64,000 nt of DNA from an uncultured Alphaproteobacteria bacterium (GCA_963720425.1 OY970391.1:2459557-2523556); one strand, 5' to 3'; shown: positions 10,403 through 55,217, numbered from the stretch's first letter. Notes: generated from the letters alone by a model not told the origin. Translations and numbers: made by a program.

Positions 10403-10652
10403 ATGACGCTGCAACCACCGACCATCGCGCATCTCAAAGGCCACAGCCTCGAAGGCCTGTTCGTCACTTGCGCCAATGCGGCTTGCCTTCACTCTGCGCC
10501 CTTTACCTTCCCGGCGCTCGGGCTTACCGATGATGTGCGGTTTCCGACGATCGCGCGATGCCGCCGCTTCGTCTGCACGCAATGCGGCTGCCGAACCGTG
10601 AACGTGTCGGCCGGATTGGCGAGCGCATCGCGCGGTTGGGATAGGGCGATAG
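10403..10652 (+). pseudogene. small Zn-ribbon ORF family member, near full length with 1-nt insertion
   Basis: MTLQPPTIAHLKGHSLEGLFVTCANAACLHSAPFTFPALGLTDDVRFPTIARCRRFVCTQCGCRTVNVS, then an extra G near 10607; corrected frame gives PDWRAHRAVGIGR*. Confidence 0.55.
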
Positions 10653-33618: not shown

Positions 33619-33662
33619 AGAAGGCCCACGTGTTGGCGGCGAAAGCTAGAAGGAATACCCAC

Positions 33663-36600
33663 ATGGCCCCCAATGCCACCCAGCCCAAGACTCCCGAATC
33701 CAAGCCGGAATCGAAGCCTAATGCGAAAGACGATTTGAGATCTCTGCCCCTGGCGGAGGTGGAGAAAAAGCTGGGTTCGTCACCAAATGGCCTCACGCAA
33801 GCCGCGGCGCAAAAGCGGCTGATCCAATATGGGCCCAACGAGATTGAAGAAAAGAAGACCAATCCGTTCCTGAAATTCCTCTCCTATTTTTGGGGTCCGA
33901 TTCCGTGGATGATCGAAGCGGCGGTGATCCTTTCGGCGATAGCCCGGCATTGGCCGGGATTTGCCATTATCCTGCTTCTGCTTTTGACCAACGCCGTGGT
34001 CGGCTTCTGGGAAGAACGCCAAGCGGGAAACGCCATAGCCGCGTTGAAGGCGCAGCTCGCGATCAAGGCCCGCGTGAAACGTGATGGGAAGTGGATCAAT
34101 CCGCCGGCATGTGAGCTGGTGCCGGGCGACATCATCCGGTTGCGCTTGGGCGACATTGTGCCGGCGGATGCCCGCTTGTTGGACGGCGACCCGGTGGAGG
34201 TGGATCAGTCGGCGCTGACGGGAGAGTCCTTGCCCGTGACTCACATGCCGGGCGACGCGGTGTTTTCCGGCTCGATCATTCGCCAGGGCGAAATCGGCGC
34301 CCTGGTCTATGCCACGGGTACGAACACGTATTTCGGCGAGACGGCGCAGCTGGTGCAGCAGGCGCATACCGTCAGCCATTTTCAACGCGCGGTGCTGAAG
34401 ATCGGCAATTACCTGATCGTCCTCGCGGTGGCTTTGGTGACAGTGATCATCGCCGTCGCGATCTTCCGCGGCGACCCGATCCTTACGACGTTGCAGTTCG
34501 CCCTGGTGCTGACCGTCGCCGCAATTCCCGTCGCGATGCCGACGGTGCTGTCGGTGACGATGGCCGTCGGCGCGCGCCTGCTCGCGAAGAAACAGGCGAT
34601 CGTGAGCAAACTAGTGGCGATCGAGGAACTGGCGGGCGTGGACGTGCTCTGCGCGGACAAGACCGGCACCCTGACCCAGAACAAGTTGACCCTGGGCGAT
34701 CCGTTCAGCGTGAACAATATTTCCGCCCACCAAGTGATCCTGAATGCCGCGCTGGCGTCGCGCGCGGACGATAATGACACGATCGATCTTGCCGTTCTGG
34801 GCGGCCTGAAAAATGATCAGGCCTTGAAAAGCTACCAGGTGACCCATTTCCAGCCGTTCGATCCGGTGCATAAGCGCACCGAAGCCACCGTCAAGGGCCC
34901 GGACGGAAAGGCGTTCAAGGTGACGAAGGGCGCGCCGCAGGTGATCCTGGCGCTGTCGGCCAATGCCGCGCAGGTGAAGGCCGCCGTCGACAAGGCGGTC
35001 AATGATTTTGCGGCGCGCGGGTTTCGTTCGTTGGGCGTTGCGCGGGCCGATGGCGATGGACAATGGCAGTTTCAGGGTGTGCTGCCCCTGTTCGATCCGC
35101 CACGCGACGATGCCGAGGCGACCGTGGCGACCGCGCGAAAGATGGGGGTGAAGATCAAGATGGTGACCGGCGATGCGCTGGCCATCGCCGTGGAAACCGC
35201 CAAGAAACTCGGGATGGGCACGGACATCCTCGATGCCAGCGGCCTGGGCGACGCAAAACATAAGGAGACCGCATCGGAAACTGCGTCCATCGAGAAAGCC
35301 GACGGTTTCGCTCAGGTGTTCCCCGAACAAAAGTTTCACATTGTGGATGTCCTGCAAAAGCATGGCCATATCGTCGGCATGACGGGCGATGGGGTGAACG
35401 ACGCCCCCGCGCTGAAGCAAGCCGACTGCGGCATCGCTGTTTCGGGCGCGACGGACGCGGCGCGCGCGGCGGCGGCCATCGTGCTGCTGACGCCCGGCCT
35501 GTCGGTGATCATCGACGCGGTCAAGGAGAGCCGCCGCATCTTCCAGCGGATGAACAGCTACGCGATGTATCGCATCGCCGAGACGCTGCGTGTGCTGTTC
35601 TTCATGACGTTGGCGATCCTGATCTTCAACTTTTATCCATTGACGGCGGTGATGATCGTCATGTTGGCGTTGCTCAACGACGGCGCCATCCTGTCGATTG
35701 CTTATGACAATGTTCATTACAAGGATCAGCCCGAGGCCTGGAATATGCGCCTGGTGCTGGGGATCGCCACGGTGTTGGGCGTTATCGGCGTCGTGGCCGC
35801 GTTTGGCCTGTTTTATCTTGGCGAGCGCGTCTTTCACCTCGACCACGCGCACATCCAGACGCTGATGTATCTGAAGCTGTCCGTGGCCGGGCATCTGACG
35901 ATCTTCTTGACGCGGACGCGCGGCCCGTTCTGGTCCATACGCCCCGCGCGGATTCTATTGATAGCGGTGTTCGGCACGCAGACATTGGCGACTCTGATCG
36001 CAGTCTATGGGCTGTTTATGACACCGCTGGGCTGGGGTTGGGCAGCGTTCGTTTGGTTCTATGCCGTGGCTTGGTTTCTCGTGAATGACCGCGTGAAGCT
36101 GCTCGCCTATCGGATCTTCGATCCAGTGAAAGCCGAGCCCAAACCGGAGGCCAAGGCCGAGCCTGAGCCTGACGCCAAGGCCGCCCCTCAGCCCGACGCC
36201 AAAGCCGGGGCCAAGCCCAAACCGGAAGCCAAGGCCGAGCCCAGGCCGGAAGCCAAGGCCGAGCCTGAGCCTGACGCCAAGGCCGCCCCTCAGCCCGACG
36301 CCAAAGCCGGGGCCAAGCCCAAACCGGAAGCCAAGGCCGAGCCTGAGCCTGACGCCAAGGCCGCACCTCAGCCGGAAGCCAACGCCGAGCCTAAACCTGA
36401 AGCCAAGGCCGGGGCCAAGCCCAAACCGGAGGCCAAGGCCGAGCCTGAGCCTGACGCCAAGGCCGCCCCTCAGCCCGACGCCAAAGCCGGGGCCAAGCCC
36501 AAACCGGAAGCCAAGGCCGAGCCCAAACCGAAAGCCAAGGCCGAGCCTGAGCCTGACGCCAAGGCCGCGCCTCAGCCGGAAGCCAACGCCGAGCCTAAAC

Positions 36601-36869
36601 CTGAAGCCAAAGCCGGCGTCGCGACACCGCTCAACACGTCGCTCGGTGACCTCCTCCTGGCTGGCCTCGTCAAAGACCCGGAGGATGCGGGGCGTATCAT
36701 CGCCGCGGCTATCACCCAGGCTGAGGCGCCCATCGCGGCCGCAAAGGCGCCTGAAACCAAAGCCGAGCCTCAGCCTGAGGCCAAAGCCCAGCCGGAAACC
36801 AAAGCCGCGCCCAAACCAGATGTCGTAGCCAAGACGCCGTCCGATTCGACGCCGCGGACCGCCAAGTAA
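33663..36869 (+). CDS. P-type ATPase, plasma-membrane H+-ATPase (type IIIA)-like, with a long repetitive C-terminal extension
   Basis: [40 protein letters not shown]; about 250-aa PEAK-rich tail. Confidence 0.85.
36127..36615 (+). repeat. in-frame tandem repeat (units of 102/78/102/102 bp) encoding the Pro/Glu/Ala/Lys tail
   Basis: GCCGAGCCTGAGCCTGACGCCAAGG recurs at 36156, 36258, 36336, 36438 and 36540. Confidence 0.85.
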
Positions 36870-43807: not shown

Positions 43808-44290
43808 TCAACTCTGATGTCCGCCCGGCAGCGGCACGAAGGGAATGACCGCGCCGCCGAAAATGTCTGACCGCGTCACCCTGAAGGCGCCGTTGGCGCC
43901 GATTGTCTTGACCGCTTTCAGGATATGCTGCGCGTCCGCAGCGAGCGAGAATGTGGTCCCCTCCTCATCACCCCTTGCCAAGGCTTTCATGGCGCGCAAC
44001 AGCGTCGCAATCTCGCGGTTGGCAATCGCTTCGGCCGTGTAGCGGCCGCCGCTTAAGCCCTATCTATTTCTTATCTATTTTAGATATTCGTTGGGCTCCC
44101 TGATTGCGAGGTGCGGCGCCCGGGTGAGCCTTTCCGCGCTCATCTGCACATAGCCGCCGTTCACGTCACTGCCAAGTGAATGATTGACCAGCTTCTGATC
44201 GGTATTGTCGGAGTCACTAAAGAATGGGAACGGCGTCGTAAGGTAGGGCGGAGATTCATGAGTTTCGCAGGCGATAGGCGATAATGGAGG
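43808..44290 (-). pseudogene. two non-contiguous tyrosine-recombinase-like fragments (second, decayed integrase)
   Basis: 44075-44290: DQKLVNHSLGSDVNGGYVQMSAERL.. aligns with IEKILNHTGGSFRGVVGIYQRHSFADEKR of the intact int; 43808-44042: FSLAADAQHILKAVKTIGANGAFRVTRSD resembles the VPLSDAVVAIL..VFTSRGD region. Confidence 0.4.
44047..44124. repeat. 78-bp repeat (77/78 identical to 47231-47308) containing palindrome TATCTATTTTAGATA
   Basis: Direct comparison of the two stretches; palindromes at 44072-44086 and 47256-47270. Confidence 0.9.
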
Positions 44291-47023: not shown

Positions 47024-47579
47024 GCCGGTCGATGTCTGTTTCGCCCCGAAAGCGGACTTGCGGCCGGGCCGGAGCAAGACCAGACCGTATTGAGATTGGT
47101 CATAGCCCCGCGAGATTGTAGACACTGAATCTCATACATAGCGGACTTAAGGGGGCTGCCACTCTCTCGATTATGCAGCTGTCTGCTTTGGCTTTGTCGC
47201 TGGTACCGAACGAGCCGCGCTTCCTGTTCTCGCCGCTTAAGCCCTATCTATTTCTTATCTATTTTAGATATTCGTTGGGCTCCCTGATTGCGAGGTGCCG
47301 CGCCCGGGCGATTCTTCTGCAGCTCAGCCGGCAGTTGATGTTCATCTTCCGGCGTCCACGGATCTGGCACGTCGTTGCCCCAGTTCATTGCGATCCAGTT
47401 CTCGCGAGTCACTTCGGTGGCGTGACCGGTCTTGACCGCCTGGCCGTCGCCGCTCGCCGCATGATTCGGCAGATGCAACGTCGCACGCGGCGCAAAGCCG
47501 GAGCGGTTAGCTCAGATCTTAGAACCAATCGCCATTTGTCGAGAGACCAACAATGTCGCCTGTGGACATTTTTTGCCGC
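47024..47579. repeat. direct repeat copy A (150 bp + 217-bp extra segment + 189 bp)
   Basis: 47024-47173 = 54881-55030 and 47391-47579 = 55031-55217, near identical; 47174-47390 is present only here. Confidence 0.9.
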
Positions 47580-47599
47580 AACGCATTGGCCGTCGCATG

Positions 47600-47815
47600 C
47601 GGCAGATCGAAAATCGGGCATGACGTTCACGGCCCGGCCGCCGCAGCGCGTGCAGACGAAGCGCCGCTGCGCAATCGACGGGAACTGCACATCATCGGCG
47701 AGCCTGAGCGCCGCGAACGTGAAGGGCTTCGAATGCTAGGCAAGCCGCGTTCGTGCATGTGACGAACAGGCCTTCGAGGGCTTCAGTAATCACCTCAGCC
47801 GCCCACGGGCGTCAT
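47600..47815 (-). pseudogene. Zn-ribbon ORF family member with several lesions
   Basis: LEGLFVTCTNAACL / HSKPFTFAALRLADDVQFPSIAQRRFVCTRCGGRAVNVMPDF; an extra nt near 47737. Confidence 0.5.
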
Positions 47816-48076
47816 AAAGCCGACTTTGTTCTCATGTATCGATTCTGTGGCCAAAACATCGGGAGGATGATCACAATGGCAGCAGCGACAACGCCGCGAT
47901 GGAGCACAACAGTTTCGCCGACAAGCTACCACACATAACCCGTACGCCCCCAATATTCGCTTACACTGAAGGCAAACTACTCTGTATGCGGCGGCGTGAC
48001 ATCTTGTTTCCCCCAATTTCGAGGTAGCCTCGCGCCCGCAATCCGCGGCAGAGCGCGTGAACCACGAGGGTTGGCA

Positions 48077-48770
48077 ATGGCGACGCGACGAAGGTTTCTG
48101 CAGGCCGCCGGCGGGTTGGTCGGGGTGCTCTCCACCGAGCAGGTCGCGCGTGCCGAGCGGACGTTTGACGGTCCACCGAGCTTGCCGCAGACGCCCAACA
48201 TCATTGTCCTGTTGACGGACCAAGAGCGCTACCACATGCATTGGCCCGCGGGTTGGGTGGAGGCCAACCTGCCGGCGTTCGTGCGCCTGCAGCGTCACGG
48301 GCTAACGTTCCATCGCGCCTTATACCGCCGCCAGCGAGTGTTCGCCCAGCCGCGCCGTGATGCTGACTAGCCAGTTCGCGCCGGTGAACCGAGTGGCGCG
48401 AACTTTCCTGTGGCCAGGCCTGCCGAGCGCGCGGCAGCGCGTGAATATCGGTTCCCTACTACGGGATCGTGCTGGCTACCACGTGGTGTGGAAGGGCAAG
48501 TGGCACTTGGGCTTCGCACAGAATGCCAAGCCGGGGTCGGGCGGCGAGGAGTGGACGGCCGCCGATATCGCGTACCTGGAGCGCCAATACGGCTTGGCGG
48601 AGTGGAACCCGCCAGATGCCGGGAACGCCATCCAGGAGCGCCAGCCGGGCATGTTCGGCTATTTCAACGGACTGGCCACGCTCGGTGGCGGTACGCCGAA
48701 TAATGACGGACGTTATGTCAGCGGCGTCACGCCGGGCGCCTCTGGGCAGACGCCGAACTGCTGTCGCACA
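48077..48770 (+). pseudogene. sulfatase, N-terminal part, frameshifted and truncated
   Basis: Tat signal MATRRRFLQAAG, NIIVLLTDQ; an extra T near 48320 before AYTAASECSPSRAVMLTSQF. Confidence 0.7.
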
Positions 48771-48851
48771 AGCGTTTGTCGTGGCCGCGAAGATTGGGAA
48801 GATTGGGTTGACAGCGCGCTTCATGTGGATCGCCTTTCGCAGGGGGTAACT

Positions 48852-48992
48852 CTATCCTAATCGTCCCATCCGATGCACCCGCCAATCCGGCGACACGTTC
48901 ACTGCTCTCGCTCCGCATTGTGAGCACACGAAGCGCCGGCACCGCGTGATCGACGGGAAGTGCAATTCGTCGGCAGGCTCAGCCCCGTGAAG
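48852..48992 (-). pseudogene. Zn-ribbon ORF family, C-terminal half
   Basis: DELHFPSITRCRRFVCSQCGARAVNVSPDWRVHRMGRLG*. Confidence 0.5.
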
Positions 48993-49070: not shown

Positions 49071-49225
49071 ATGGTAGATACCCTCATCAAAAATGTCTCC
49101 GACACCGCATTCATGGTCGCCAGCTTCCGTGCCGTCGAAAGCGAGCGCGCGGATGCCCTCTTTCATGATCCGTTTGCTAGAAGGCTAGCGGGTGAACATG
49201 GGCGGAAGATCGTCGAGGGCATGTC
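49071..49225 (+). pseudogene. SAM-dependent (LCM/TcmP-type) methyltransferase, N-terminal fragment
   Basis: VSDTAFMVASFRAVESERADALFHDPFARRLAGEHG. Confidence 0.45.
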
Positions 49226-49289
49226 GGGAGGGATTCTAGGTGGCTGGGCGCCTGCGATACGCACAGGCATGGTGGCATGGACGGTGGCG

Positions 49290-49519
49290 ATCCGCACCTG
49301 CATTATCGCCACGTTGTCCCAAGAACCGTTGTCGCCGGAAGCCACGGCGACCGTAATGCCGAGCGCAGCCGCCTCTAACAACCTTAAATGCATCTCATTA
49401 ACGGAATCCTGAGGGAACACGTCTTCGGCCGCCCCCCAACTGATCGAGACCACCGAAGTTTGTGGATTAGAAATTGCCTCCAGGACCGCATATTTTACCT
49501 GGACGTCCTCGTCAGCCAT
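49290..49519 (-). pseudogene. S53 (sedolisin) peptidase internal fragment
   Basis: SISWGAAEDVF..MHLRLLEAAALGITVAVASGDNGS. Confidence 0.45.
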
Positions 49520-49688: not shown

Positions 49689-51611
49689 ATGCCGTTACCA
49701 GAAAGCACACCATCCGGTGCCGACGCCGCTGGCATTATGAGCACGCCATCTGCGCCCGACACGACTGCGGCATCGCTCGACCAAGCATTCCACGACCTCG
49801 ACGCCAACGTAAAGCCCGAGGAGATTGTCCGGCGCCTGTGCGAGCTCGAAGCTTCGTGCCAGGGCGGTACGCGCGACCAGGCGAGGCTTTTGCACGCGCG
49901 CGGATTGGCACTCAACCGTCTCGGCTTCGACTCGCTTGACGACCTGCAGACCGCGGCCAGTATATTCCAGGAGCTCGGCGACCGCCCGGCTACGGCTGAG
50001 GTGTGGCGCGCGATCGCCCTCGTTCACAATTGGCGCGCCAATGCTCGCGAGGCTTCGCTGGCGCTGTTGCGGACCATCGCCGAGGCCGGCGAGGACCATC
50101 TCAATCTGGCGCGCGCGGTTTTAGAGACCGGTCGATTGGGCATTGAGGTCGGCCGCGCCGACGAGGCGCATCGTTTTCTCGTGCGCGGGCTCGAGATCGG
50201 CGGCGCCGATCTCGAAGCTCTGGAGATGTGCAAGGCGCGCGTCAATGCGCTGCAAGCGCTGGTTGTTGGGGGCGATGTCAATGCGGCCGAAGCGATGTTG
50301 GCCAGCATCGATCTTGATGGTGCGACGACCCGCCTGCGACATCTCACCATGCTCGAACGCGCGCGCATCGCTTTGTTGAAGGGTAAGATCGACGAGGCGG
50401 AGAAGATCCTTGACGAGAGTTGCGGGCTCCTTTTACCGGACGATCCCGAAAACTTTAGCGACATCGAACAATCGCATGTCGAGGCCGAGACCCTTTTCGC
50501 CAAGAAGAATTATCAGCAGGCGTTGGACCGCATCGGCAAGGTGATCGCTCGCTATTTTGCCGATGATCTCCCCGGCCGCGAAATCGGCGCGCGGATCTTG
50601 GAAAGCAAGATCCTCGATCAATTAGGCCGCCGCGATGACGCCGACCGGACGCTCGCGGCGGCTTTGCAGCAGGCGGTTCAGCGTCAGCTCTCGTCCCACA
50701 GAAGAAATGTTCTCGAACAGCTCGCGGCAAGTGAGCGGACGGCCGGAGCCTGGCTGCCTGGAACGGCGCTGGCTATCACGACCGCCAATTCCAAAGATCT
50801 TTTCTATGGGCGCGAGCCGCTCGGCACAGGGGGTTTCGGGTCGGTGGAGAGCGCTTACGATTGCGAGACCGGCCGCAAGGTCGCGCTCAAGCATTTGCAG
50901 CTCCAAAGTATCTATGATCTTTCGGTACAGGCGGATCGCCTCCACGCCGCCGAAATGGAAGTCGCGGCGGCGTCGCGGGTCAAACACCCCGGCGTCGGGC
51001 AAGTTTTCGGGCTCATACGCGAGCCGGATGGCGAAGCTCTTCTCGTGCGCGAATTCATAGAAGGAGAGGCCCTTCGCGACGCCATGATGCAGGGCAAGTT
51101 GGAATTTTCCGAGAAATTCGGGCTCCTCGCCAACATGGCTTACGCGCTCGCGGCGATTTACGCCGCGTCAGTCGTCCATCGCGATATGAAACCGGAGAAC
51201 GTCGTCCTACGCAATAACAGCGCTCAAGCACCGGTCATCATTGACTTCGGCATCAGCGTGATAGGACGCGTCCGCGAAGCAAAGGATGCGCCCAAAACTC
51301 TAGTTTATGCCGCGCCCGAACAGATGAAGGCGGGATGGTGCGACGCGCGCAGCGACCTTTATTCGCTGGGCTTGATCGGCTACGAACTCTTCGTGGGACG
51401 ATTGCCCGAGCCGCCGGAATCGGGACTGCTGGGAATTGTCGAAGATGCGGGCCGCAGCAAGGCGATTGCGCATGAACTTAGCGGCGCCGGTCTCCGCGAC
51501 CCTCTAGTGGCGCTGTTGACGCGGCTTTTGTCGGTATCGCCGCAACATCGGCCTTCCTCGGCGCAGGACGTCGGAGCGATGATCAACGCGGCGAAGGGTG
51601 AAGGGGGATAA
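49689..51611 (+). CDS. Ser/Thr protein kinase with a long N-terminal helical (TPR-like) region
   Basis: GGAGGGGG RBS; GTGGFGSV, VALKHL, HRDMKPENVV, IIDFGIS, YAAPEQ in the C-terminal 270 aa. Confidence 0.85.
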   Translation: MPLPESTPSGADAAGIMSTPSAPDTTAASLDQAFHDLDANVKPEEIVRRLCELEASCQGGTRDQARLLHARGLALNRLGFDSLDDLQTAASIFQELGDRPATAEVWRAIALVHNWRANAREASLALLRTIAEAGEDHLNLARAVLETGRLGIEVGRADEAHRFLVRGLEIGGADLEALEMCKARVNALQALVVGGDVNAAEAMLASIDLDGATTRLRHLTMLERARIALLKGKIDEAEKILDESCGLLLPDDPENFSDIEQSHVEAETLFAKKNYQQALDRIGKVIARYFADDLPGREIGARILESKILDQLGRRDDADRTLAAALQQAVQRQLSSHRRNVLEQLAASERTAGAWLPGTALAITTANSKDLFYGREPLGTGGFGSVESAYDCETGRKVALKHLQLQSIYDLSVQADRLHAAEMEVAAASRVKHPGVGQVFGLIREPDGEALLVREFIEGEALRDAMMQGKLEFSEKFGLLANMAYALAAIYAASVVHRDMKPENVVLRNNSAQAPVIIDFGISVIGRVREAKDAPKTLVYAAPEQMKAGWCDARSDLYSLGLIGYELFVGRLPEPPESGLLGIVEDAGRSKAIAHELSGAGLRDPLVALLTRLLSVSPQHRPSSAQDVGAMINAAKGEGG

Positions 51612-51688
51612 GAATCGCGTTCGCCTTGAGGACGTCGAAGCCCGAGACTTGCGTCTTTTTCGGCGCTGCCGCCAACACAGGTGCGGCC

Positions 51689-51778
51689 CGGCGCCGCAAG
51701 TTCATCTGCACGCGCTGCGGCGCCCGAACGGTGAGCTTGATGCCGGATTGGCGGATGCATAAGGCTAGCGGAATGGGC
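51689..51778 (+). pseudogene. Zn-ribbon ORF family, C-terminal fragment
   Basis: RRRKFICTRCGARTVSLMPDWRMHKASGMG. Confidence 0.45.
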
Positions 51779-52022
51779 AGTCACACGCGGTCCCCGGTAC
51801 ACTGCCGAGAACTACGACTTTATGCGCCAGTATCGCGGCCAAGATGACGAAGAAGACATGCAGCGCCACCGCACCCTGCTGAAGCAGCATACACGAAAGC
51901 GACGATGACCTAATTTTTGGCTACCTGCCTGGATGCGATTGAAGAAAAAGCAGCTGCCGTTCAAACAATTCGCACTCTAGGCCATCACCTGATATTTTAG
52001 GTGCGATGGTGGTTTCGGCGAT

Positions 52023-54817
52023 TTGGGTTCCAGATTGCGTATTTTCCTGTCCTTCAATTCCAAGGATACGGCGCTGGCCGAGGCCATCCGTTTCGGCCTT
52101 TGCAGGTTTGAGCCCGATGCGAGTATCTATTTCTCTCCAGTGTCTCTTGGCAGCGGCTTTTGGCTGCCGAAACTGGCGACCGAGATCGGCGAGGCCGACG
52201 CGTTCCTGCTGCTGATCGGGCCCAAAGGGATCGGTTCCTGGCAGGAAGTCGAATACTTCGCCGCGCTGGACCGGCATGTGAACGAAAAAGCGTTTGCGCT
52301 TGTGCCGGTTATGGCATCCGGCGCGCAGGCGCCAGGATTGCTGTTCCTGCGCAGCCTTAACTGGGCGAGGCTCCGTCCGTCACTGAGGATACAACGCTGC
52401 ACGAAGTGCTTGCGGCGCTCAAGGGCGGCGCGGCGGAGAACGCGACGCCGCTGTGGAAGCTGGTCAATCCCTATCGCGGCCTCGAAGCGATGACCGAGGC
52501 CAATGCCGATTATTTTTACGGCCGCGGCGGCGAAACCGCCGGCGTGCTGAACGCGCTCGCCGCAAAACCGGATCGGCTGCCGATCCTGATCGGCGCTTCG
52601 GGGGTAGGCAAATCCTCGGTGGCGCAGGCCGGAGTACTGGCGGCGCTGAAGGCCATGCGCTGGCCCAGCATTGACGGGGCGGCATCAAATGCATGGCCGC
52701 CGGGGCTTTCGAACAGCCGCAGCTTTCTCACCCTGATGATGCGCCCCGGCGATGCGCCGCTCGAAGCGCTCGCCGGCGTGTTCATCGGCCTGTGGGGGCT
52801 CGACTCCACGGACCCCGAACAGGCCACTTTGCCGCGCAAATGGGCTAAGGGCCTGTCCGCCGGCGACAACAAGCTCGCCGACCTGATCGGCACGACCCAG
52901 GAGCGACTTAAAAAGCGGCAGGGCGAAGCACCGGAGCGTGTGCTCCTCTACCTCGATCAGGGCGAGGAGCTTTACACCCGCGCTGCACAACAGGAAGCGC
53001 ATCGTTTTTCGGAGGTGTTGAACGAAGGACTGCACGATCCGCGCATGTTCGCCTTTGCCAGCCTGCGCGCCGACTACTACGATCGCTTCCAGGCCGACGA
53101 GCCGCTATTTAACCGCCGCGAGCACGTCGACGTGCCGCCGCTCGATCGCGCCCAGCTTCAGCGGGTCGTCACCGCGCCGGCCGCCGCGCTTGGGGTCTCC
53201 TTCGAGGACGACAAGATCGCCGACCGCATCACGGCCGCCGCGGCGGCTGAACCCGGCGCGCTGCCGCTGCTCTCCTATCTTCTCACCGACATGTGGGCCG
53301 AGATGGTCCAGCGCGACAAGCCGGTCTTGGGATTGTCGGCGCATGCCATTGACATCGGCGGCGTGCTCGCAAGCCGTGCCGAAAATTTCCTCAAGGAAAA
53401 TCCAGAAGAGCAAAAGGCGCTGCGCCGCCTGCTGACGCTGCGGTTTGCGATCGTCCCGCCGGAAGGCGAACCGGTGCGCCGCCAGACATTCCGCGAGGAA
53501 TGCAGTGAGGCGGAATGGGCGCTCGCCGCCCGGTTGGCCGATTATCCGTACCGGCTCGTGGTGATGAGCGAGCGCGAGATTGACGGCCATGTCGTCGCCG
53601 AGGTCGCGCACGAAGCCTTTTTGCGCGCTTGGCCGCAGCTAGCGCAATGGCTACGCGAGGAACGCGATTTTCTGGTGTTCAAGGGCGAAGTCGAGCGCTC
53701 CGAGCGGCGCTGGCACGAGATGACGCAGGCCGATCGTGCCTTACTCACCGGGCTCGATCTCGCCCGCGCCGAAGAATGGCTGCCGAAGCGGTCCGGCGAT
53801 CTGTCTCCTGAAGTTACCGCCTACATACAGCGCAGTATCGCTTGCGACCGCGCCGCAAAGGAGCGGCAACTTCGCTTCCAACGGCGCGTGACCCTGGGTT
53901 CAGTGGCTGCAATGCTCGTTATATTGATTATCGGCGCTTTTGCCTGGATCAAATGGGGTGATGCGGATCAAGCTAGGTCGTTGGTCGTGAGCGAGCGCAA
54001 TCAAATGATCAAGATTGAAGCGAACTTTCTTGCTGGTCTGGCGCGCCAGGCTCACGACAGGGGTGACAACCGAACGGCGATCGCGTTGGCACTCCAAGCA
54101 CTTCCGGACCCAACTTTGATGGGCAGGATACCAAATACGGTTGAAGCCTTATTGCATGCGGCACTAGCCGACTATCGGGCCGCCAAAAGTCGAGGCATCA
54201 CAGTTTTTTTCTCGCCTGACGGTGGTCGCATCGCAACAGTGATGCCCGACTTTAGCATTCAAATTTCGGACGCTGCTACGCGCAAAGTAATCATTGTACT
54301 AAGGGGACCTGAAGATGAAATTACCAGCGGAGCTTTCTCGCCCGACGGCAGCCGCATTGCGGCTGCTTCTTTCGATAAGACCGTGAGGGTCTGGGATGCA
54401 GTGTCCGGTAAGTTACTGATCACGGACATCGGTCATTCGGACTTCGTCAGTGGAGTTGTATTCTCGCCGGATAGTCGTCTCCTTGCGACCTTTTCGGCGG
54501 ACCATACAGCAAGGGTGTGGGATGCAGCTGTGGGAAGGGAAATTACCGTACTATTGAATAATAGTGCGGTAGAAAGTGGCGCATTTTCGCCAGATGGAAG
54601 GCATCTTGCTGTTGCCTTGGATAGCGGCGCAGTTGTGGTGTTTGATATTAGAAGCGGTGAGGGACAATACAGTTTCAATTACGGGGACCGCCTTTTCGAA
54701 GTAGCTTACTCCCTCGACGGCAATCGTATTGCGGCTGCTTCTTCCGTTGGAGATGTGCCAATCTGGGATGTTGCTACGAGGCGTCTAATTTCAGTGCTCC
54801 GTGCAACACGGCAATAG
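52023..54817 (+). CDS. TIR - STAND P-loop NTPase - TM helix - WD40 protein, interrupted by one frame change at about 52365 and ending after 5 WD blades
   Basis: TIR-like IFLSFNSKD..DAFLLLIGPKGIGSWQEVEYF; NPYRGLEAMTEANADYFYGRGGE; Walker A GASGVGKSS; LLYLDQGEE; TM VTLGSVAAMLVILIIGAFAWIKW; FSPDG..VWD repeats. Confidence 0.7.
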
Positions 54818-54880: not shown

Positions 54881-55217
54881 GCCGGTCGATGTCTGTTTCG
54901 CCCCGAAAGCGGACTTGCGGCCGGGCCGGAGCAAGACTAGACCGTATTGAGATTGGTCATAGCCCCGCGAGATTGTAGACGCTGAATCTCATACATAGCG
55001 GACTTAAGGGGGCTGCCACTCTCTCGATTACGATCCAGTTCTCGCGAGTCACGTCGGGGCGTGACGGTCTTGACCGCCTGGCCGTCGCCGCTCGCCGCAT
55101 GATTCGGCAGATGCAACGTCGCACGCGGCGCAAGGCCGGAGCGGTTAGCTCAGATCTTAGAACCAATCGCCATTTGTCGAGAGATCAACAATGTCGCCTG
55201 TGGACATTTTTTGCCGC
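54881..55217. repeat. direct repeat copy B (337 bp)
   Basis: See copy A at 47024-47579. Confidence 0.9.

Follow-up and report, generated by a model that had tools for sequence, protein, structure and literature searches.

Bacterial conflict systems built around nSTAND1 are the closest described relatives of the locus analysed here. Kaur et al. (2021, eLife, PMC8195603) defined nSTAND1 as the central NTPase of conflict systems that carry TIR, caspase, trypsin, kinase or FHA modules together with repeat sensors, and STAND clades linked to defence include TIR effectors as well as WD40 sensors, Apaf-1-like WD40 STANDs among them (PMC13581612). The window, a stretch of 64,000 nucleotides (nt) from an uncultured Alphaproteobacteria bacterium (GCA_963720425.1 OY970391.1:2459557-2523556), holds two genes that recall such systems: gene 1, which encodes TPR-like repeats and a Hanks Ser/Thr kinase domain, and gene 2, which encodes a TIR domain, an nSTAND1 NTPase, a transmembrane (TM) helix and WD40 blades. 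A first-pass annotation had proposed the two as a conflict/defence pair, with the caveat that they might be unrelated neighbours and inactive in this strain. It is the caveat that comparison with homologues favours. We consider it likely that these are two unrelated conflict-type genes, brought together by chance in a decayed and variable island of about 7.9 kb, with gene 2 as a pseudogene and gene 1 as an orphan; no conserved adjacency was found among the homologous loci sampled, and gene 2 is broken.

The order of effector, STAND NTPase and repeat sensor in gene 2 is also that of Avs and bNACHT proteins, and those Avs and bNACHT proteins that have been characterised sense phage proteins in the cytoplasm. 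Gene 2 differs from them in that its NTPase belongs to a different clade, that it has no PADLOC match and that the sensor of its family is predicted to lie outside the cytoplasm. With the nSTAND1 conflict systems (PMC8195603), gene 2 shares the NTPase core, an N-terminal TIR effector and C-terminal repeats as the presumed sensor, all in a single polypeptide. However, the window copy is frameshifted and truncated, and its subfamily has a conserved single TM helix between NTPase and sensor. Gene 1 shares a Hanks domain with all catalytic residues with the single-gene Ser/Thr kinase defences PD-T4-6 and Stk2 of staphylococci, whereas its TPR module of 370 amino acids (aa) defines a separate small family with 4-TM and FHA-TM-trypsin neighbours.

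Domain composition of gene 1 and gene 2

The features of the two genes are as follows (all on the + strand; the basis of each assignment is given in brackets):

49689..51611: gene 1, TPR-like repeats and Hanks Ser/Thr kinase, intact, 640 aa (open reading frame list, Pfam)
Gene 1 residues 1-370: TPR-like helical repeats (Pfam)
50814..51566, gene 1 residues 376-626: kinase domain (Pfam Pkinase, E 1.5e-32)
52023..54817: gene 2 overall, TIR, nSTAND1 NTPase, one TM helix and WD40 (open reading frame list, Pfam)
52023..52364: gene 2 first part, TIR domain with a W-Q-x-x-E-Y motif (Pfam, profile against PDB, AlphaFold/Foldseek, homologue alignment)
52365..52366: frameshift, 1 nt missing in a Val codon (homologues LNWVEAP; window ctgg-g-cgag)
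52367..53887: gene 2 second part, nSTAND1 NTPase module followed by a helical region (PF20703)
52466-52525, 52592-52618 and 52940-52969: NPYRGLEA..GR signature, Walker A and Walker B of the NTPase
53888..53956: single TM helix VTLGSVAAMLVILIIGAFAWIKW, with RFQRR just before it (hydropathy scan)
54185..54817: about five WD40 blades, ending abruptly as ..ISVLRA and then TRQ and a stop (Pfam WD40, alignment)

Gene 1 matched its first description in coordinates, in the Pkinase assignment and in every motif quoted; the TPR matches stayed below threshold (TPR_MalT on residues 119-332, E 1.2e-9, 38 bits against a cut-off of 45; TPR_12 on residues 63-128, likewise sub-threshold). The Hanks motifs GTGGFGSV (residues 379-386), VALK (398-401), HRDMKPEN (497-504), DFG (519-521) and APE (542-544) are invariant columns in an alignment of 30 kinase-family members, and full-length identity between gene 1 and the 29 others ranges from 37 to 82%. 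The product is, as far as its sequence tells, probably still an active enzyme. Its N-terminus, MPLPES, is common to several homologues, and GGAGGGGGAG precedes the start. A 5'-truncated kinase was considered and ruled out, the MPLPES N-terminus and the ribosome-binding site both being present in homologues as well, which marks the start as native.

A PADLOC search, which the first-pass annotation had suggested for both proteins, gave a divided answer. On gene 1, PD-T4-6 hidden Markov models matched with E-values down to 8.5e-42 and the mad6 model matched too, all within the generic kinase domain (residues 375-635, 41% of the protein); PknB/Stk1 models match this domain equally well, with scores far under their cut-offs, and all NCBIfam kinase equivalogs are likewise far under cut-off. 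The TIR part and the NTPase part of gene 2, as well as the intact homologue P0004, had no match in PADLOC-DB 2.0, and a weak HEAT-ARM match on the WD40 region was the only one within these queries.

Gene 2, with its likely start at a TTG codon at 52035 or 52023, showed the succession of domains that had been read from it. In Pfam, TIR_2 matched with E 3.3e-8 (34.5 bits against a gathering score of 28), nSTAND1 (PF20703) with E 1.3e-74 (252 bits against a cut-off of 27), and many WD40 matches followed the TM helix found by the hydropathy scan. Walker A reads GASGVGKSS and Walker B VLLYLDQGEE. A TIR profile built from the gene 2 homologues matches the TIR domains of Cat1, TIR-STING and SARM1 in PDB, and the invariant W-Q-x-x-E of the family aligns in this homologue profile with the W-x-x-x-E of PDB TIRs, including those of Cat1 and TIR-STING. 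The catalytic glutamate of SARM1, E642, lies in this motif. An AlphaFold model of the TIR domain (pLDDT 82, pTM 0.80) found the SARM1 TIR as its best Foldseek match, at a TM-score of about 0.70. The first-pass annotation had made its TIR assignment depend on profile and structure searches, and the assignment holds because both were passed. No solved relative of the TIR-nSTAND1 region was detectable by sequence, a phmmer search against PDB sequences giving nothing useful.

The protein had also been described as not belonging to any system that could be named. Its NTPase profile places gene 2 in the nSTAND1 class (Kaur et al. 2021), as part of a widespread NLR-like family of stand-alone genes. 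Its homologues number more than 1300 at E <= 1e-10 among 8000 scored candidates and show swapped C-termini, which include WD40, TPR, Sel1, FGE-sulfatase, caspase and His-kinase modules.

Genomic neighbourhoods of the two families

The kinase family is of a very different extent. It counts about 44 full-length members, and when 1.84 billion representatives were searched exhaustively with the TPR module, 56 clusters (50% identity) emerged at E <= 1e-30 and 165 clusters at E <= 1e-10; the profile of this N-terminal module, which is family-specific, recovers the kinase family. The sizes of the gene 2 and kinase families thus differ more than tenfold. Loci of the kinase family were gathered by looking up exact proteins and by scanning metagenome contigs with an alignment of the TPR part alone; this gave 23, about 15 of them non-redundant.

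A kinase gene adjoins a TIR-nSTAND1 gene in none of these roughly 15 loci. Conversely, no kinase lies near a gene 2 homologue in any of five distinct loci (L088/89, L090, L091, L110, L111), and the neighbours of the close gene 2 homologues differ in all five, often being insertion sequence (IS) elements. The first-pass annotation had staked its proposal on intact homologues lying together. Within the sample, the intact homologues of both genes do not co-localise, and the idea of a pair fails for that reason.

Three points weigh against the reading of chance neighbours. Gene 1 and gene 2 lie on the same strand, 411 nt apart, and are both of conflict type. In addition, nSTAND1 paralogues with 26-29% identity occur 3.5-6 kb from the kinase in 2 of the roughly 15 loci (L006 and L095), which is some association at the level of islands, although such proximity is what defence-island clustering would give. 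Finally, the neighbourhood sample is small, with five gene 2 loci, about 15 kinase loci and many short contigs.

The kinase family has conserved neighbours of its own. An FHA-TM-Trypsin_2 protein of about 600 aa with one TM helix lies downstream of the kinase in 9 of the 12 loci that have at least 1 kb of downstream DNA. In 6 of the 11 loci with upstream DNA, a 4-TM protein adjoins the kinase on that side, with a length of about 680 aa and a weak match to SLATT_1; a phmmer search of PDB sequences with this protein gave nothing useful. The loci of the module are:

L006:8016-14109
L007:10001-13735
L094, L095, L097, L102, L105, L106 and L108

At L006, the upstream position is taken by a 2-TM protein with a RyR domain in place of the 4-TM protein. 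In the two clades closest to gene 1 for which DNA beyond the kinase is available (L001:11890-15291, L004:11936-15386), a convergent gene follows instead. It encodes a protein of 447 aa with MAP3K_TRAF_bd (DUF4071) and TPR-S, the N-terminus of which matches the PADLOC TIR-effector model PDLC00733 with E 2e-8. Directly beside this TIR-like gene, L001 and L004 carry pncB and pncA of NAD salvage. Neither salvage gene occurs in the window or at the other kinase loci, and their adjacency to a TIR-like protein may not be a coincidence.

With an FHA-TM-trypsin protease on one side and a 4-TM SLATT-like protein on the other, the TPR-kinase seems to be part of a membrane phospho-signalling conflict module. 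The FHA domain of the partner suggests a phospho-Thr-dependent coupling to the kinase. In an intact module, sensing by the TPR repeats would lead the kinase to set phospho-Thr marks, which would be read by the FHA domain of the membrane protease, and the 4-TM SLATT-like protein would be the likely effector.

This module is missing around gene 1. All kinase partner proteins were searched against the window with tblastn and gave nothing credible even at E = 10, which makes gene 1 an orphan without its customary operon partners. Moreover, the DNA that aligns with the nearest kinase relative (86% identity) is confined to 49736-51592 and 61 nt downstream. As homology stops at both gene borders, gene 1 was separated from its operon right at these borders.

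The surrounding island

The two genes lie in a segment that is bounded by direct repeats and filled with further gene fragments:

47024..47579, no strand: left direct-repeat copy bounding the island (repeat search)
47586..47693, - strand: zinc-ribbon remnant containing FPSIAQRRFVCTRCGGRAVNVMPDFR (tblastn of remnant peptides)
47996..48860, + strand: sulfatase-like fragments spread over two frames; twin-arginine signal MATRRRFLQAAGG (open reading frame list; weak Sulfatase match, E 0.049)
48855..48968, - strand: zinc-ribbon remnant, ELHFPSITRCRRFVCSQCGARAVNVSPDWRVHRMGRLG (tblastn of remnant peptides)
49071..49412, + strand: N-terminal fragment of an LCM-type methyltransferase (Pfam LCM, E 3e-5, profile positions 1-41 of 187)
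51683..51778, + strand: zinc-ribbon remnant between gene 1 and gene 2 (tblastn of remnant peptides)
54881..55217, no strand: right direct-repeat copy (repeat search)
10403-10646, + strand: zinc-ribbon remnant outside the island (tblastn of remnant peptides)

The repeats pair as 47024-47173 with 54881-55030 and as 47427-47579 with 55065-55217, each at 99% identity. The left copy holds an insertion of 213 nt (47174-47386), within which lies an 86-nt repeat that recurs at 44047-44132. The sulfatase-like fragments are probably a pseudogene. The zinc-ribbon remnant between the two genes, which the first-pass annotation had pointed out, proved to be one of four remnants of an 82-aa double-CxxC family with the consensus ..PPTIAHLKGHGLEGLFVTCANAACLHSAPFTFAALGL..FPSIARRRRFVCTQCGARxVNVxPDWRxHRAxGxGR. 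Several paralogues, some intact and some decayed, lie on the same 3.2-Mb contig, and Methylovirgula sp. has relatives of the family; neither Pfam nor NCBIfam has a model for it, and a tblastn search of plasmids with the zinc-ribbon peptide gave no match. The gene behaves like a dispersed repeat gene.

Perhaps, the segment is a mobile or excisable defence cassette that carries both genes as non-interacting cargo. This could account for a 7.9-kb segment flanked by direct repeats of 99% identity, for the conflict type of both genes and for the IS elements that often lie beside relatives of gene 2. However, no integrase, transposase, tRNA or Rfam element was found in or beside the island, and the absence of tRNA genes and Rfam matches extends to the whole window, which leaves the island without an att site of the tRNA type. 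The repeat itself, at 340-550 bp and internally rearranged, resembles a dispersed repeat more than an att site, and the two genes were not found together at any other locus sampled. We therefore regard a mobile cassette as unlikely. The island presents itself as a recombination-prone junkyard and not as an operon.

Disruption of gene 2

To place the defects noted in gene 2, the gene was aligned with 20 full-length homologues of 1345-1470 aa, the closest of which share 59-67% identity with it. Both the frameshift and the truncated propeller seen in the first-pass annotation are present. At the frameshift the homologues read ..LRSLNW-V-EAPSVTEDTTLH.., and the window is short by one nucleotide at 52365, directly after a GGG run. 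Following this deletion, the TIR frame ends at 52493, and the NTPase frame is open only from 52361. A programmed frameshift was ruled out, the homologues using one continuous frame and the site being a plain loss of a single base.

At the C-terminus, gene 2 lacks about 450 codons relative to the homologues, equal to about nine WD40 blades and a conserved Cys-bearing cap. Full-length homologues carry about 14 blades followed by the PRC..PPAWC..KWPY cap, whereas the window copy has about five blades and no cap, and its homology ends 64 nt before the right repeat copy (54881). Gene 2 is considered inactive because the missing nucleotide puts the TIR domain out of frame with the NTPase and two thirds of the sensor are gone. 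Loss of function in this strain is very likely, and the window copy, as read from the alignment, is a pseudogene of a family member that would not yield the intact single-polypeptide sensor fusion.

Alternatively, gene 2 could be functional, the frameshift being an error of long-read assembly and the short propeller a natural shorter variant. The relevant comparison is with a second assembly of the same strain from a different sample (L109, ENA ERZ25039501 contig_7765), which agrees with the window at 99.96% identity across 21.9 kb (window 39689-61610), with seven substitutions and one indel. Most of these differences lie at or beside GANTC (CcrM) motifs, which suggests methylation-related base-calling errors in the long reads. 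As both assemblies are long-read metagenome assemblies prone to such miscalls, an indel error at 52365 keeps a small probability, which counts against the pseudogene reading as does the position of the lost base after a GGG run, and the GANTC-linked miscalls are a caution for pseudogene calls in this assembly at large. However, the identical deletion at 52365 is present in both assemblies. Homologues with only five to eight blades do occur (P0021, P0023, P0027, P0041 and P0044), but they retain the PRC..PPAWC cap that the window copy lacks. The abrupt end of homology 64 nt from a repeat copy and the other gene fragments that fill the surrounding 7.9 kb also speak for decay, and a functional gene 2 is judged improbable.

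A close gene 2 homologue, P0007 (L090:3365-3692), seems to have its TIR domain split across two frames as well; disruption of the TIR domain, or long-read indel error, may recur in the family.

The least probable explanation, for which we see hardly any room, is a functional two-gene defence system of TPR-kinase and TIR-STAND protein that was recently inactivated in this strain, for example with a kinase that detects infection and then licenses the NADase, or with these roles exchanged: the co-orientation over 411 nt, the PD-T4-6 and mad6 matches of the kinase domain, the known combination of nSTAND1 with kinase and FHA modules (PMC8195603) and the nSTAND1 paralogues that L006 and L095 carry less than 10 kb from the kinase are outweighed by the lack of adjacency in about 15 kinase and five gene 2 loci, by other conserved partners of the kinase, among them an FHA protein that would account for what the kinase does, by the break of homology to the nearest kinase locus at the gene borders, by the remnant of a dispersed repeat gene between the two genes and by the generic nature of the PADLOC matches, which PknB/Stk1 models equal with scores far under their own cut-offs. 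Filing the locus as two unrelated conflict-type genes, an ordinary outcome, avoids the false call of a new system.

Other features of the window

Outside the island, a tyrosine recombinase (Arm-DNA-bind_3 and Phage_integrase) is encoded at 562-1827 on the + strand, at the start of the window, the left part of which may come from an integrated element. At 33630-36869 (+ strand), a P-type (E1-E2) cation ATPase has an unusual C-terminal tail of about 170 aa with (AEPKPEAK)-like repeats, which lie at 36132-36616 and have a period of 24/102 nt at the DNA level. Around a polyhydroxybutyrate (PHB) cluster with phaC, a thiolase and an SDR gene, segments are duplicated at 17372-17667/25002-25297, at 15988-16277/28037-28327 and, inverted, at 16452-17015/21790-22353. 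One of these duplications repeats 296 nt of phaC upstream of the SDR gene. The duplications are signs of recent rearrangement.

Predicted topology and signalling of intact gene 2 relatives

While the window copy is considered dead, its intact relatives share a feature that sets the subfamily apart. A TM helix follows the nSTAND1 module, at about residue 620, in 111 of the 120 best homologues (P0002-P0120), and it is found in the TPR, Sel1, FGE and caspase variants as well. Lys and Arg residues are more frequent before the helix than after it in 102 of 107 homologues, at 5.5 in the 15 residues before against 2.4 after. The sensor repeats are predicted to be extracytoplasmic because of the positive-inside rule and because the TIR and NTPase domains would need cytoplasmic NAD+ and nucleoside triphosphate (NTP). 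Members with WD40 repeats share the C-terminal PRC..PPAWC..KWPY cap, and its conserved Cys pair fits a sensor outside the cytoplasm. In the literature searched, no description of this topology, with a TM helix and then a sensor, was found for the nSTAND1 family; a study of diversity-generating retroelements mentions briefly that the sensor domains of some STAND targets may be periplasmic (PMC10907252).

On these grounds the intact gene 2 family may consist of single-pass TM "outside-in" NLR-like receptors, with TIR and nSTAND1 in the cytoplasm and a WD40, TPR, Sel1 or FGE sensor in the periplasm that bears, in the WD40 members, the cap with the Cys pair. The chances for and against this reading seem about even to us. 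From the conserved motifs and domain order, we infer a membrane topology, an order of signalling and a NADase activity that would operate as follows. About 14 extracytoplasmic WD40 blades with their Cys-containing cap, beyond the TM helix, would bind a ligand, and the signal would cross the membrane to the nSTAND1 NTPase, which would then oligomerise in an NTP-dependent manner. Oligomerisation would cluster the N-terminal TIR domains, and these could hydrolyse NAD+ through the conserved glutamate of W-x-x-x-E, leading to growth arrest or signalling. All of this would be a property of the family; the presumed loss of function in the window copy takes this strain's gene 2 out of the scheme.

Toll-like receptors offer a functional analogy only. 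As in these receptors, intact gene 2 relatives are predicted to have a single TM helix, with a repeat sensor outside the cytoplasm and a TIR domain inside it. In the gene 2 family, however, the order is reversed, so that the protein starts with the TIR domain, a STAND NTPase comes in between, and WD40 takes the place of leucine-rich repeats; homology is confined to the TIR domain, and the topology is itself a prediction. If the prediction is true, these proteins would represent a bacterial hybrid of Toll-like receptor and NLR that senses envelope or extracellular cues and not cytoplasmic phage proteins, and such extracytoplasmic sensors would extend bacterial NLR-like immunity from the cytoplasm to the sensing of the envelope.

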